NCBI GenBank assembly: GCA_044225175.1
Contig: JBGAJA010000004.1
Coordinates: 17,631 to 81,630 of the forward strand
Length of the DNA: 64,000 nucleotides
Direction: 5' to 3'
Source: Candidatus Omnitrophota bacterium
GTDB taxonomy: Bacteria; Omnitrophota; Gorgyraeia; Zapsychrales; Fredricksoniimonadaceae
Each line of letters begins with the position of its first letter. Positions within the stretch are counted from its first letter, which is position 1. Positions 8,952 through 13,490 of the stretch are shown in pieces. A model generated the notes under the pieces. That model was given only the letters and a program-made list of their open reading frames with translations, was not told the DNA's origin and made no database searches. The translations under genes and the position numbers were made by a program.

Positions 8952-10877
8952 ATGTATCCACTCTCAACTCCCACTTCTCGTTGGTATTATGCCTTACGAT
9001 GGTCAATTATCTTAATGCTTGGACTAATTATTTATTATCAAACATTTAGGTTTGGCTTTGTGTTTGATGACAATCTTTTTATTGTAGATAATCCCCACAT
9101 CAAGAACTTCAGTAATATTAATGGCATGTGGTCTGAGATACCAAAAACTAGAATGATTGGAATATATTCATTTGCAATAAATTACTTTTTCCATCAGCTC
9201 AATCCTCAAGGATATCATATCTTTAATTTGATTATTCATCTTATATGCGTGGGATTGGTTTGGGCTTTATCTTCTTTAATTTTTAAAATTACTAAATCAA
9301 TGCAGAATGATTCTCTCCAAAAAGAACTGCCATTTTTTATCGCACTTCTCTTTCTTGTTCATCCTGGTCAAACTCAAGCAGTTACGTATATCACTCAACG
9401 ATTTGAATCAATAGCAACCTTATTTTATCTTGGAAGTATTTATTGTTACCTACGCGGTCGAATCTTGTCTAATACCCCAAAAAGAACTGCATTTTTTATT
9501 TCATCAGTATTTCTAGCTTTCTGTGGAATTTTCACTAAAGAAACAGCTGTCACCATTCCTTTTATGATCATCGCTTTTGAACTTATTTTATGGCCCAAGA
9601 ATTATTCAAGAACCTTAGAATCTTCAAAAAAGATCATTCTACTTCTTATAGGATCCATTTTATTTACACTTATACTAATGAAACTTCTAAAAACAGGCCT
9701 TATTTCCTATTTAAACTATACAACTCCATCTAATTCTCATGATGGAGACATCACAACTCTCGGCAATTATTTACTAACTCAATTAAGAGTATTCCTTACC
9801 TTCTTAAGACTTTTAATTCTTCCAATAAACCAGAATGTTGATTACGACTATGTTTTATCTTCAGGTTTATTAAAGCCTCCATTAACATTTATAGGAGCAT
9901 GTCTAATAACCACTTTTGTTTACATTATTATCAAAACAAAGAATACATTCCCTTTAATTGCTTTAGGACTTACTTGGATTCTAATCACATTTTCTATTAA
10001 TCTAGCTCCTCGTCCCCATCTTATTTTTGAACATAAACTTTATTTAATCTCATTTGGATTCTTCTTAAGTAGCGTATCTTTTATACACATAACTATCCGT
10101 AATAAAAAACTATTGGCTATTTTCTTTATAGGAATCTTATGCATATTCACCGTACTTAGCTTTAAGAGAAATAAAGCTTGGGCTAGCGAGTTAACACTTT
10201 GGGAAGATACGATTCAAAAATCTCCCCATAAAGAAAGAGTATTGGCAAATTTAGGCAGAGCTTATGCGCTTACACAACACTATGAGCAAGCTATTATCGT
10301 CCTTAGTAAAGCCATAGCAATGAATGAGCGTAATTATAAAAGCTATTTAAACCGAGGTTATGCCTACGAACAGATTGGTTTAGAAAGTAAAGCTTTGGAA
10401 GATTTTAATAAATCTATCGAAATTAATCCTGATCATTTTGTGGCATATTTACAGATAGCTAAAATTTATAAAAAACAAAAAAACACTGAAAATGCACTAA
10501 ATTATCTCAACAAAGTTATTACTCTCGCTCCTAAATTTCAATATGGTTACATAGAAAGAGGATTTTTATTCCTAGATATGAACCAAAAAGATTCTGCCTT
10601 CAAAGATTTCAACGTAGCACTTCAAATAGCCCCTCATGATCCCGAAGCTCTCAATGGACGAGCTATGTTTTATGGGGCTACAGGCCAATTGGAACTTGCC
10701 ATCAAAGATTTGACACAAATTCTCAACTTAGATCCCCAAAATGCCCTTATTCTTAAAAATAGAGGATTATGTTTACTCAAATTAGGAAGACAGCAGGAAG
10801 CTTTAAATGATTTGGTCAAATCTTGGAAGATTAACCCAAACGATGAAGAACTAAAATCAATGCTTATAAAAAGATAA
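8952..10877 (+). CDS. Membrane protein with a polytopic N-terminal domain of about 400 aa and about 11 TM helices, fused to C-terminal TPR repeats. It resembles GT-C fold (PMT/ArnT/TfpW-like) glycosyltransferases
   Basis: A DD motif (FVFDDNLF) lies in the first extracytoplasmic loop after TM1, followed by multiple TM segments. The C-terminal 230 aa consists of TPR units (AYALTQHYEQAIIVLSKAI...). It is a paralog of 11535-13490. Confidence 0.5.
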   Translation: MYPLSTPTSRWYYALRWSIILMLGLIIYYQTFRFGFVFDDNLFIVDNPHIKNFSNINGMWSEIPKTRMIGIYSFAINYFFHQLNPQGYHIFNLIIHLICVGLVWALSSLIFKITKSMQNDSLQKELPFFIALLFLVHPGQTQAVTYITQRFESIATLFYLGSIYCYLRGRILSNTPKRTAFFISSVFLAFCGIFTKETAVTIPFMIIAFELILWPKNYSRTLESSKKIILLLIGSILFTLILMKLLKTGLISYLNYTTPSNSHDGDITTLGNYLLTQLRVFLTFLRLLILPINQNVDYDYVLSSGLLKPPLTFIGACLITTFVYIIIKTKNTFPLIALGLTWILITFSINLAPRPHLIFEHKLYLISFGFFLSSVSFIHITIRNKKLLAIFFIGILCIFTVLSFKRNKAWASELTLWEDTIQKSPHKERVLANLGRAYALTQHYEQAIIVLSKAIAMNERNYKSYLNRGYAYEQIGLESKALEDFNKSIEINPDHFVAYLQIAKIYKKQKNTENALNYLNKVITLAPKFQYGYIERGFLFLDMNQKDSAFKDFNVALQIAPHDPEALNGRAMFYGATGQLELAIKDLTQILNLDPQNALILKNRGLCLLKLGRQQEALNDLVKSWKINPNDEELKSMLIKR

Positions 10878-10907
10878 TATCTAGCCTGCTCAAAAATAAT
10901 CAATCAG

Positions 10908-10942
10908 AAAAAAAGCGACATCAAAATCGATGTCGCTTTTTT
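10908..10942. terminator. Bidirectional rho-independent terminator between the GT-C/TPR gene (plus) and pilA (minus)
   Basis: AAAAAAA-GCGACATC-AAAATC-GATGTCGC-TTTTTT: an 8-bp GC-containing stem flanked by an A-run and a T-run. Confidence 0.65.
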
Positions 10943-11422: not shown

Positions 11423-11534
11423 TTTAAATCTCCTTCATTTGGGGTTATATCTTATTTATTATATATTATTTATAGCTCGATTGTATATGTCCAATCTTGT
11501 TTTAAGGTTAACACTCAATTGCATCTCTGTCAAA

Positions 11535-13490
11535 TTAATTGCGGTCTTTTTTTGCTTGTTTTAAAAGTAGGGCCTTCTGAATATTGTCAGAAAAAAGCTT
11601 TTCATGTGGATCAATCTTAAGGCCAAAATTCCACATTTGTATAGCCTCATCTAACCTGTCTTGATTTCCTAAAAATGATCCTATTCCCAAATAGATATCT
11701 TTATCATTAGGATTCAATCGTAAAGCTTTAATATATGCTTCATACGCTATATCAAAAATTAGATTCTTTGCCATCAAATTTGCGAATGCAGTCAAATCTT
11801 TAGGATTATTAACTTTTGTGATGTACGTTTGAGTTAATTCTTTTAAACGGACATCTTTGTTCCTTATATAGACCACAGCCATGTTATACAGAGCCTCTGA
11901 ATCAACAGGATTTATGGTTAGGGCTTTCAATAAATATTCTTCACATTTATCCCATTGGTCTAACTTTGAATTAACTACTGCTAAATTTGTATAACATCGA
12001 ACACAAGAGGGCTGTAGTTTTATTGATTTCAACAAATACATCTCTGCGCTTTTAAAATTATTTTGCATTAATTCAATAGAGCCTAAATTATTAAATGCCA
12101 AAACATCATTGCCGTCTTCATTTAAACTTAATAGAAAATGCCTCTTAGCTTCGTCATAATTTTTTTCTAAAAGATAAGCATGGGCTAAATTAAAGCGTGG
12201 GAAATCTAAAAAAGGAGATAGTTTAACCCAGTAGCTCGTATATGTTTTCTCATCTCGCCAAAGATTATTGTATGCATATGAACTCTGAATCCAGGAAGAA
12301 ACTATTACAATCAAAACCAATCCCCCCACCCATTTGCCCATTCGAACCCATAATGATAAAAGACAATGAGCCGCAAAAATAAAAAAACCAATCGCAGAAA
12401 AAGCAAACCAATGCGGTTCTATCACAGCAGCATTTTCTGATTTATAAAACATGGCTAACCCTGCAGGCAAAAGGCCAATTAAAAACCATAATAAACCGAT
12501 TTGTATTATTTTATGTTTACGAAAAGCGTAGAGGGCGACTAAAAATAAAAAGACTGAAGCCAGTAGCAATAAATTTAACCATACAAGATTAAATCGAATG
12601 ACCGGTGAAGCAAACATAAAAATAATGTCACGTGGATAAAATAAATTACTTACATACCAAGATAAAACCTTAAAAATAGTCGCACCATATTCAAATATAC
12701 TCATTTTAAACTTAGCTATATTGCCAAACAGATCTTCGCCATTTGAAATAAAAAACTTCCTAAATAATAAATAAGAAAAAAATATTAGAAAATATGGAAC
12801 TAGATAAAGAATTGCATTTTTCTTTCTAAGCCCATCTGCAAACAAAAGAACAACCCCTAAATAAAATGGAAGCATAATTGATGTTTCATAAAATAGTAAA
12901 GCTATAACAAAACATAAAAGGCTAAAGAAATAATAAGATCTTTTATATGAATTTTGAATCAACACCAATAACAATAATATTGATGCGGACACAAAAAGGA
13001 CTTGAAAAGAAGCTGAAGCTGCAACAATATAATTCACCAAAACCCCATTAATAGGATGAATAATATACAAAGCGCTACTTAAAAATGCTAAATTTTCATT
13101 CTTAGATATTTTCAGAATACAAAGATAAAGAAAAAAAGCAGCTAAAATAAAAATACAGAGGTTAAAAAGATGATACTTCCAAAAATCTTCTTTAAAAAAA
13201 GTATAGTTATACGAAGCTACTATATGAAGCAGCGGTCTGTAATATGAATCGTGGCCGGGGGCGCGTTGATAACCTTTATAAATCGACTCACGATAAGGGT
13301 TCCATTGCAAAGAGGAATACTTAATATCCGAATAAAGCGGAGTTGATTGGAAAGCATAGTCATCCATCGAGAACTTATTTTGAAAACTATTAAGAAAGGT
13401 AAGCAATCCGAGAAGAAATAATATTACGAAAGTTATACCTAAACTGCGCGGATTTAATTCTTTTGAATCAACCATGCTGATACCCACCAC
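11535..13490 (-). CDS. Membrane protein with a polytopic N-terminal domain fused to C-terminal TPR repeats (GT-C-like). Paralog of 8952-10877
   Basis: A DD motif (KFSMDDYAF) follows TM1, then about 11 TM helices and C-terminal TPR units. Its 3' end overlaps pilC. Confidence 0.5.
   Translation of the reverse strand: MVGISMVDSKELNPRSLGITFVILFLLGLLTFLNSFQNKFSMDDYAFQSTPLYSDIKYSSLQWNPYRESIYKGYQRAPGHDSYYRPLLHIVASYNYTFFKEDFWKYHLFNLCIFILAAFFLYLCILKISKNENLAFLSSALYIIHPINGVLVNYIVAASASFQVLFVSASILLLLVLIQNSYKRSYYFFSLLCFVIALLFYETSIMLPFYLGVVLLFADGLRKKNAILYLVPYFLIFFSYLLFRKFFISNGEDLFGNIAKFKMSIFEYGATIFKVLSWYVSNLFYPRDIIFMFASPVIRFNLVWLNLLLLASVFLFLVALYAFRKHKIIQIGLLWFLIGLLPAGLAMFYKSENAAVIEPHWFAFSAIGFFIFAAHCLLSLWVRMGKWVGGLVLIVIVSSWIQSSYAYNNLWRDEKTYTSYWVKLSPFLDFPRFNLAHAYLLEKNYDEAKRHFLLSLNEDGNDVLAFNNLGSIELMQNNFKSAEMYLLKSIKLQPSCVRCYTNLAVVNSKLDQWDKCEEYLLKALTINPVDSEALYNMAVVYIRNKDVRLKELTQTYITKVNNPKDLTAFANLMAKNLIFDIAYEAYIKALRLNPNDKDIYLGIGSFLGNQDRLDEAIQMWNFGLKIDPHEKLFSDNIQKALLLKQAKKDRN

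Follow-up and report, generated by a model that had tools for sequence, protein, structure and literature searches.

The pilA locus

The stretch of DNA analysed here, called the window in what follows, comprises 64,000 nucleotides of a Candidatus Omnitrophota bacterium (assembly GCA_044225175.1, contig JBGAJA010000004.1, positions 17,631 to 81,630 of the forward strand). It carries a gene for a type IV pilin, pilA, that is flanked on either side by a gene for a large membrane protein ending in tetratricopeptide repeats (TPRs). The two flanking open reading frames (ORFs) are referred to as ORF A and ORF B. In a preliminary description of the region they were taken for paralogous glycosyltransferase-like proteins of the GT-C fold that would together with pilA form a pilin O-glycosylation module, and the coordinates given there for ORF A, pilA, and ORF B match the ORF list exactly (Table 1).

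The positions of the two flanking genes differ in transcriptional terms. The start codon of ORF B (ATG 13475, from which its residues are numbered here, or GTG 13490) overlaps the stop codon of pilC (TGA 13470–13468), which places ORF B in the pilus operon and agrees with the translational coupling to pilC that had been claimed for it. ORF A is a separate transcription unit, convergent with pilA and lying behind a hairpin. This hairpin has a perfect stem flanked by an A-run and a T-run and a folding energy of −19.9 kcal/mol (z = −7.6), and none of 200 shuffled sequences was as stable; it reads as a bidirectional terminator between the converging genes, as had been proposed. It was recognised by folding and is absent from the list returned by a consensus terminator scan. 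The two promoter-like sites upstream of pilA were recognised by consensus only, and such sites are no more numerous here than expected from shuffling.

The N-terminus of the PilA precursor, M-K-K-M-N-K-Q-S-G/FTLIE, is a canonical class III signal, and the prepilin assignment made earlier is upheld by the N_methyl match. pilA is the sole ORF with a prepilin motif within the 64 kb window.

Table 1. Features of the pilA locus, the pilus operon, and the neighbouring conjugative cluster (positions are those of the window).
Feature	Position	Strand	Remarks
ORF A	8952–10877	+	641 aa; membrane domain aa 1–410, TPR domain ~413–641 (ORF list, TPR families, AF2 model)
Bidirectional intrinsic terminator	10909–10942	.	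between ORF A and pilA; A6-GCGACATC-loop-GATGTCGC-T6
pilA, major type IV pilin precursor	10970–11422	−	150 aa, G/FTLIE; N_methyl PF07963 E 9e-10
pilA upstream region	11423–11534	−	112-nt spacer between ORF B and pilA; TGGACA-17-AATAAT and TATACA-18-TATAAT; ribosome binding site GAAGGAG
ORF B	11535–13490	−	651 aa; 646 aa counted from ATG 13475
pilC, T2SSF platform protein	13468–14709	−	T2SSF E 2.6e-57
pilB-type assembly ATPase	14722–16440	−	572 aa; Walker A motif in translation
pilQ secretin	16437–17930	−	Secretin E 2.3e-37, plus Secretin_N and STN
158-aa signal-peptide protein, PilP position	17954–18430	−	
PilO-like	18427–18945	−	PilO E 2.9e-4, just below Pfam cut-off
PilM-PilN fusion	18957–20501	−	514 aa; PilM_2 E 2.4e-10 (residues 55–163), PilN E 5.5e-6 (430–513)
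TraC	922–3546	−	
TraV	3416–3880	−	
TrbI/TraB-like	4610–5761	−	
TraE	6415–7032	−	
TraL	6983–7366	−	
TrbC/VirB2-like pilin	7303–7593	−	
TraG_N-like protein	7606–8721	−	

Architecture and family of ORF A and ORF B

AlphaFold2 (AF2) models of the two proteins, built with family alignments, reach a pLDDT of 92.5 and a pTM of 0.89 for ORF A, and of 91.3 and 0.88 for ORF B. Both show 11 transmembrane (TM) helices followed by six or seven C-terminal TPR hairpins. The first loop, of 50–65 residues, contains 3–4 short juxtamembrane helices, and TM7 and TM8 are joined by a long loop that carries an amphipathic helix. In the C-terminal 230 residues Pfam finds TPR families only (TPR_1 with E 4e-31 in ORF A and 3e-24 in ORF B). 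A pair of aspartates (DD) follows TM1 by 5–6 residues in each protein, at D39-D40 in ORF A and at D38-D39 in ORF B. The AF2 models and the conservation within the families thus support the earlier account of some 11 TM helices, a DD in the first extracytoplasmic loop, and C-terminal TPRs.

Among 58 sequences of the A family D39 and D40 are invariant, as are R67, H89, H137-P138, Q149-R150-E152, K196-E197, H263, R279, R286, D299, and E360-H361-K362. In the B family the DD pair is at least 90% conserved among 28 sequences, the 9 closest all having it, and the invariant or near-invariant positions are D38/D39, R80-P81, H102, N105, H140-P141, E197, Y274, and P281. Across 71 members of the wider superfamily the DD pair, R80, H140, P141, E197, and Y274 are conserved at 90% or more. 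Polar residues are therefore fixed in the loops, a pattern that is enzyme-like and not that of a membrane anchor. The orientation of these loops was assessed from the distribution of positive charges. With a cytoplasmic N-terminus (N-in), the short loops contain 16 Lys and Arg on the cytoplasmic against 4 on the periplasmic side in ORF A, and 14 against 1 in ORF B. These counts favour the N-in orientation, so that the DD loop, the TM7–TM8 loop, and the TPR domain of both proteins are predicted to be periplasmic; the periplasmic DD loop on which the preliminary description depended is consistent with this in silico check.

These features bear on the possibility that ORF B is a non-catalytic assembly factor, whose TPRs would act as a pilotin of the PilF/PilW/Tgl kind or as a pilin chaperone while the membrane domain is an anchor. 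Such a role is suggested by the NCBIfam model type_IV_pilW, which is the best match for ORF B (57 bits) and scores high for ORF A (75 bits), by the Tgl model, which matches both, and by the names 'Tfp pilus assembly protein PilF' or 'TadD' that some homologues bear at the Joint Genome Institute (JGI). The scores are however far under the curated cut-offs (75 and 57 against 154 bits for type_IV_pilW, 46 and 26 against 225 bits for Tgl) and amount to generic TPR similarity. An anchor would need neither 11 TM helices nor the DD, R, HP, E, Y-x6-P, and E-x-H-W that are strictly conserved in distant relatives, and there is no lipoprotein signal, the N-termini of ORF A and ORF B being polytopic membrane domains and not lipoboxes. 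It is therefore very unlikely that ORF B serves as a pilotin or chaperone.

How closely the two proteins are related depends on the method by which they are compared. Aligned directly (BLASTP) they are 23% identical with E 3e-14, a value that is partly owing to the TPRs, and with either membrane domain alone as phmmer query the other protein is not recovered. A hidden Markov model (HMM) of the A-family membrane domain detects ORF B weakly, at 17 bits. When the membrane-domain profiles of the two families are aligned with each other, the homology is evident (hhalign probability 100%, E 7.6e-55 over 371 columns), and the motifs fall on the same columns. The alignments make ORF A and ORF B two subfamilies of one superfamily, and the description of the pair as paralogues holds in the sense of distant homology but not in that of recent duplication. 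The subfamilies differ in size, with more than 1,289 matches for the A family, the best 120 of which, self excluded, are 44–58% identical, and 37 matches for the rare B family. The close relatives of both proteins all come from metagenome-assembled genomes (MAGs) of Candidatus Omnitrophota, some of them mislabelled as Planctomycetales. At 50% identity the superfamily as a whole comprises 69,032 clusters under a threshold of E ≤ 1e-3 and 9,096 under one of 1e-30. No dedicated Pfam model exists for its membrane domain, and its members are mostly labelled 'tetratricopeptide repeat protein'; some homologues of ORF A carry the JGI name 'protein O-mannosyl-transferase'.

Conventional annotation adds little to this. 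Pfam and NCBIfam scans of the whole of ORF A and ORF B return TPR families only, the membrane domain of 10 more distant representatives is likewise without a Pfam match, and when both full-length AF2 models were compared with the PDB by Foldseek all 50 listed matches were TPR proteins, so that the TPR matches swamped the membrane domain. As the membrane domain has no sequence match in the PDB, its family was assigned along four indirect lines, namely a relative termed P0153, PMT_2 matches within the superfamily, and the layouts of the TMTC proteins and of TfpW (see below). The membrane domain of ORF B led by phmmer (E 2.8e-5) to P0153, a relative that is likewise fused to TPRs. For Pfam PMT (PF02366) it scores 31.7 bits, where the gathering score is 22.7; it aligns with the A family by hhalign with a probability of 99.3% (E 3.9e-20, 347 columns) and carries the TMTC-type motif AERWLYLPS. 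PMT_2 (PF13231) is matched by 13 of the 71 superfamily membrane domains, with a best E of 6.8e-10, and is the only membrane family seen repeatedly among them; when the A family was aligned by hhalign with one stand-alone PMT_2 protein, the two did not match. The membrane domains match neither a transporter nor any other family outside the glycosyltransferases. The reading of the two proteins as GT-C-like membrane domains fused to TPRs, as first put forward, can therefore stand, and the profiles indirectly suggest that ORF A and ORF B are TMTC/TfpW-like GT-C enzymes linked to the PMT/PMT_2 clan.

Genomic context and proposed function

Relatives of ORF B were sought with the motif HP[IV]NG.V[ND]Y, taken from the 9 closest sequences, in one genome per GTDB species. 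The scan gave 45 loci (numbered L below), all from Omnitrophota, and loci were annotated with the pilus proteins of the window, a regular expression for prepilins, and the two family HMMs. Sixteen loci hold a protein at least 33% identical to ORF B, and as two of these are without upstream flank, 14 are informative. The B-type gene lies just downstream of pilins in eight of the 14 (L009, L011, L013, L014, L017, L019, L020, and L049). pilMNOQBC genes are also present upstream in six of the eight, and the two exceptions, L019 and L020, begin within the pilins, which would put the machinery genes beyond the contig end. The same pilus-operon arrangement is found in L002 and L003. Among the more distant B-like loci 2 of 24 are pilus-linked (Fisher p = 0.002 for the comparison with 8 of 14).

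The A family behaves differently. In a sample of 42 metagenome loci of at least 8 kb, a type IV pilus (T4P) machinery gene is present in four and a prepilin-like ORF in three (Fisher p = 0.0006 for 8/14 versus 4/42), and pilins lie upstream of the enzyme in two loci only, L055 and L063. Genes of this family typically stand in tandem arrays of 2–4 paralogues or in unrelated surroundings. When the membrane domains were arranged in a neighbour-joining tree, ORF B of the window paired with the gene of L009, which directly follows the pilin gene, and the pair was sister to the clade with the other T4P-linked genes. Pilus-operon synteny is conserved for the clade of ORF B and not for the family of ORF A, and the adjacency to pilA invoked in the preliminary description is upheld across genomes for the former gene but not for the latter. 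The pilins themselves are related as well, PilA of the window being 37–58% identical to the pilins that adjoin B-clade genes in 8 further loci from Omnitrophota. PilA of the window and its closest relative (L009:9432–9890) have in common an insertion of about 20 residues (GWCLRASQGGTADTANN) with an extra pair of cysteines, and this insertion is missing from seven other aligned Omnitrophota pilins.

The neighbours of the related B-type genes include a number of functions from carbohydrate metabolism and modification. An O-acyltransferase (Acyl_transf_3) comes right after the B-type gene in L009, Methyltransf_24 proteins are neighbours in L002 and L011, and stand-alone PMT_2 proteins are encoded nearby in L001 and L002. 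In L013 a DegT aminotransferase, an NAD-epimerase/dehydratase, and a GFO_IDH oxidoreductase are found, and in the B-clade relative L004 a glycosyltransferase of family 2 (GT2), a sugar nucleotidyltransferase, and DUF2079. A gene for a papain-like Peptidase_C1 (E ~1e-16 to 1e-17) is located between the pilins and the B-type gene in three related T4P loci (L002:7216–7980, L011:9180–9923, and L013:7267–8010) and is missing from the window. Up to four GT-C/TPR paralogues stand one after another in L013 (8027–15631), L099 (3510–12130), L002 (7989–17735), L007, and L008, and the MAG CAVYLG01 carries at least four B-type and at least four A-type copies. The tandem arrays and the copies in CAVYLG01 suggest that the family has undergone large lineage-specific expansion within Omnitrophota.

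The reading favoured here, to which a probability of roughly 0.55 is given, is that ORF B is a GT-C glycosyltransferase of the TMTC/TfpW type which most likely glycosylates the pilin, and that ORF A is a general paralogue that abuts pilA at this locus. The synteny of its clade makes ORF B a credible candidate pilin O-glycosyltransferase. ORF A is best read as a protein O-glycosyltransferase of general periplasmic use, from a normally non-pilus-linked family, that has come to lie beside pilA by chance. It very probably has the same chemistry, with other acceptors; neither the adjacency to pilA nor that to the tra genes described below is conserved. Of the module of two paralogues that was originally envisaged one enzyme is retained, while the other, a separate unit whose adjacency to pilA is not conserved, is not.

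A mechanism may be outlined for ORF B. The gene is transcribed together with pilC and translationally coupled to it, in a position right upstream of pilA. The protein would insert into the membrane with its DD loop and TPR domain on the periplasmic side, where the putative catalytic DD loop and the conserved HP..N/D.Y, E197, Y-x6-P, and E-x-H-W would lie. Catalysis, a lipid-linked donor, PilA as acceptor, and an O-linkage are inferred: sugar would be taken from a polyprenyl-phosphate carrier and transferred to Ser/Thr hydroxyls in the periplasmic globular domain of the pilin, the proposed acceptor protein. The transfer would take place on pilin that has not yet left the inner membrane, ahead of pilus assembly or in the course of it. 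The protein acceptor would be bound by the TPR superhelix. The outcome would then be as with TfpW and TfpO, that is an altered surface and stability of the pilus, altered adhesion, and resistance to pilus-specific phages. In Pseudomonas the stability and adhesion of pili are altered when pilin is glycosylated, and the modification gives protection against such phages (PMC11841053).

A number of observations weigh against this interpretation. The isolated membrane domains of ORF A and ORF B, which take up the N-terminal 400–420 residues, give zero Pfam matches even at E ≤ 10, and PDB sequence searches with full-length ORF A, the A-family membrane-domain profile, and the membrane domain of P0153 gave TPR matches or none. 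An arginine in extracytoplasmic loop 5 (EL5), ahead of TM10, that belongs to the 'AERV' motif of TMTC proteins is replaced, the corresponding stretches being F-E360-H361-K362-L-Y in ORF A and I-E-P-H-W-F in ORF B. PilA had been called rich in Ser, Thr, and Gly; its mature globular part has 24% Ser+Thr and 15% Gly, besides 6 Cys, which bears out the tendency, but the Ser/Thr richness is moderate and not extreme. No conserved acceptor site was identified in the aligned Omnitrophota pilins. The scanned ORFs of the window include no polyprenyl-phosphate sugar synthase (GT2), sugar-nucleotide genes, flippase, or prepilin peptidase. Finally, six of the 14 close B-clade loci are not pilus-linked, and since there are moreover several B-type paralogues per genome, the substrate is not fixed by membership of the clade alone.

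The last point leads to an alternative in which ORF A and ORF B alike are TMTC-like periplasmic O-glycosyltransferases of general protein specificity, with other envelope or secreted proteins as acceptors, and in which the position of ORF B reflects co-regulation or another pilus target such as the secretin, minor pilins, or an adhesin. The huge superfamily (69,032 clusters), the many paralogues in Omnitrophota, often in arrays of 2–4, the lack of a pilus link in these six relatives of ORF B and in nearly all relatives of ORF A, and the variable TPR domains, which suggest many different acceptors, would all be in line with such a general role. As regards ORF B it is nevertheless considered unlikely: the genes linked to T4P fall into a single clade that includes ORF B of the window, the B-type gene is immediately beside the major pilin gene both in the window and in L009, and TfpW, the only experimentally characterised bacterial enzyme of this architecture in the literature searched, acts on the adjacent pilin.

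It has also to be considered that the acceptor is not a protein and that ORF A, ORF B, or both resemble ArnT or EmbC in action, attaching sugars to a lipid, lipopolysaccharide, or envelope glycan or polymerising them there, the TPRs being a scaffold. The PMT_2 model matched by the relatives also covers ArnT-type lipid-modifying enzymes, arabinan polymerisation has been proposed for TfpW itself (bioRxiv 10.1101/2020.04.19.049825), and the DUF2079, PMT_2, and sugar-nucleotide genes that adjoin some of the relatives are typical of envelope glycan loci. Against these stand the fusion of TPRs to a GT-C core, which goes with protein acceptors in TMTC and TfpW, and the location of ORF B between pilC and pilA, which argues for a pilus-related acceptor. 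A non-protein acceptor thus appears improbable.

On its other side ORF A faces an F-type conjugative type IV secretion cluster (528–8721, minus strand), which is divergent from it and lies in an otherwise housekeeping region. ORF A starts 230 bp from the TraG_N-like gene at the end of this cluster, and might be its cargo or work for it and not for the type IV pilus, for instance as an enzyme that adds sugars to the conjugative pilin or to a mating-pair protein. In L005 (5543–11451) a homologue of ORF A is found in a mobile or defence-island context, amid an HTH_17 (excisionase-like) protein, integrase fragments, an intact Phage_integrase, an SLFN/AlbA_2 protein, and a TIR-domain protein, and the integrase and excisionase fragments there could be taken to favour such an association. 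It is however not conserved, as tra homologues are missing near the other A- and B-family members in about 120 fetched loci, and a tblastn search of a plasmid collection with both membrane domains gave no matches. A role of ORF A in conjugation consequently appears highly improbable.

It is tempting to speculate beyond ORF B itself that Omnitrophota possess a multi-enzyme pilin glycosylation system, composed of the TMTC-like clade embedded in T4P operons, the paralogue arrays, and tailoring genes (acyltransferase, methyltransferase, aminotransferase, and papain-like peptidase), with each TPR domain choosing its own site or substrate. Such a system is a possible but tentative extension. If it were true, pilins would be a native bacterial substrate class of the family ancestral to the eukaryotic TMTC O-mannosyltransferases, in a lineage independent of Pseudomonas TfpW. 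Omnitrophota are mostly ultra-small and possibly host-attached, and their lifestyle is thought to be pilus-dependent. Already the glycosylation of PilA by ORF B would mean that the TfpW-type design reaches a deeply branching, uncultured phylum, and would provide a bacterial model for TPR-directed choice of acceptor by TMTC-like O-glycosyltransferases. It would also reveal a gap in annotation, with tens of thousands of clusters kept under a TPR label and a membrane domain that is outside Pfam.

Some further features of the window deserve mention. A homologue of the ORF for the PilM-PilN fusion was recovered in L009, L017, L023, and L049 with phmmer, using the window ORF as query, and the counterpart of pilB in L002 has MshEN and T2SSE domains; used as a phmmer query, the pilB-type protein of the window finds pilB in related loci. 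Directly upstream of the pilus genes and on the same strand are genes for ExbD (21545–21970), ExbB/MotA (21933–22613), and an 819-aa all-TPR protein (22610–25069), and this group (21545–25069, minus strand), lying beside the T4P operon, looks like a proton-motive-force module. A Bro-N domain protein (32000–32551, minus strand; E 6e-12) is encoded amid amino-acid biosynthesis genes; Bro-N is a family typical of DNA-binding proteins of phages and mobile elements. An ORF of 1,319 aa (59921–63880, minus strand) has no Pfam match at E ≤ 1e-5, and Omnitrophota are known for very long proteins that have no assigned function. The remaining window is chromosomal housekeeping, with dap and arg biosynthesis genes, RecQ, RF3, and the ribosomal proteins L13 and S9.

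Comparison with known enzymes

Periplasmic O-glycosylation of a type IV pilin, the role proposed for ORF B, is also that of PglL and TfpO (PilO), and tfpO too is adjacent to pilA. The families are however unrelated. PglL/TfpO enzymes transfer preassembled oligosaccharides linked to undecaprenyl-pyrophosphate, and as Pfam scans gave a Wzy_C match in neither ORF A nor ORF B, an identity of the two proteins as Wzy_C oligosaccharyltransferases was ruled out. The pilin-modifying Ogt of cyanobacteria was rejected as a relative, being a cytoplasmic GT41 enzyme. The connection with the PMT, PMT_2, and ArnT enzymes (PF02366 and PF13231) consists of the profile links through P0153 and 13 of the 71 relatives and of stand-alone PMT_2 genes in related loci; in contrast to these enzymes ORF A and ORF B stay below every Pfam threshold, are without a MIR domain, and are fused to TPRs.

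The eukaryotic TMTC1-4 proteins come closer in overall design. They have 11 TM helices, a cytosolic N-terminus, a strictly conserved DD in loop 1, lumenal TPRs, and a functional TM7–TM8 loop with a non-membrane helix, and prokaryotic homologues are known to exist (PMC7801869). ORF A and ORF B resemble them in the 11 TM helices with the N-terminus inside, the DD after TM1, the pattern of residues in EL2 and EL3, the helix of the TM7–TM8 loop, and the extracytoplasmic TPRs. They differ in that Pfam DUF1736 is unmatched in ORF A, in ORF B, in the 10 distant representatives, and in the 71 relatives, and this, together with the replaced EL5 arginine, is why they are filed as TMTC/TfpW-like and not as TMTC orthologues. 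The donor would also differ, dolichyl-phosphate mannose (Dol-P-Man) in TMTC as opposed to a presumed bacterial polyprenyl-phosphate sugar, and so would the acceptors, cadherins as opposed to what is likely a pilin.

TfpW, the D-arabinofuranosyl transferase for the group IV pilin of P. aeruginosa, is a GT-C protein of 646 aa that has its N-terminus in the cytoplasm, with 11 TM helices, and in which loop 1 with its DDX motif and the C-terminal TPR domain are periplasmic according to PhoA fusions (bioRxiv 10.1101/2020.04.19.049825). The DDX motif is essential for pilin glycosylation, ArnT was the best template for modelling, and the gene adjoins pilA (bioRxiv 10.1101/2020.04.19.049825). Compared by this published description, ORF A and ORF B are alike in size (641 aa, and 646 or 651 aa), in their predicted N-in topology with 11 TM helices, and in the DD loop and TPRs predicted on the periplasmic side, and like tfpW, which adjoins a major pilin gene, ORF B adjoins pilA in the window. 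The Y-x6-P-F-x7-P motif of TfpW is approximated in periplasmic loop 4 of ORF B by Y274-x6-P281-R-x8-P291, where the spacing is off by one and the Phe is lacking; Y274 and P281 are conserved across the B family, and ORF A has F284-x6-P291. The gene order is different, as ORF B is upstream of pilA, between pilC and pilA, while tfpW is downstream of it. The TfpW system is moreover accompanied by genes for D-arabinofuranose (D-Araf; DprE1/DprE2-type) and by tfpX, none of which is among the scanned ORFs of the window, and it belongs to Proteobacteria and not to Omnitrophota.

With TfpW described as having the very same architecture, the case is nearer to known biology than was assumed in the preliminary description, which used TfpW as a loose analogy. 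The type of enzyme, the fusion to TPRs, and the linkage to a pilin gene are already known from TfpW, as are prokaryotic TMTC-like proteins, and the practical novelty is modest since type, architecture, and linkage have all been described before. What is new is that Omnitrophota have a clade linked to pilus operons, that relatives have paralogue arrays with tailoring genes, and that Pfam lacks a membrane-domain model for a very large family.

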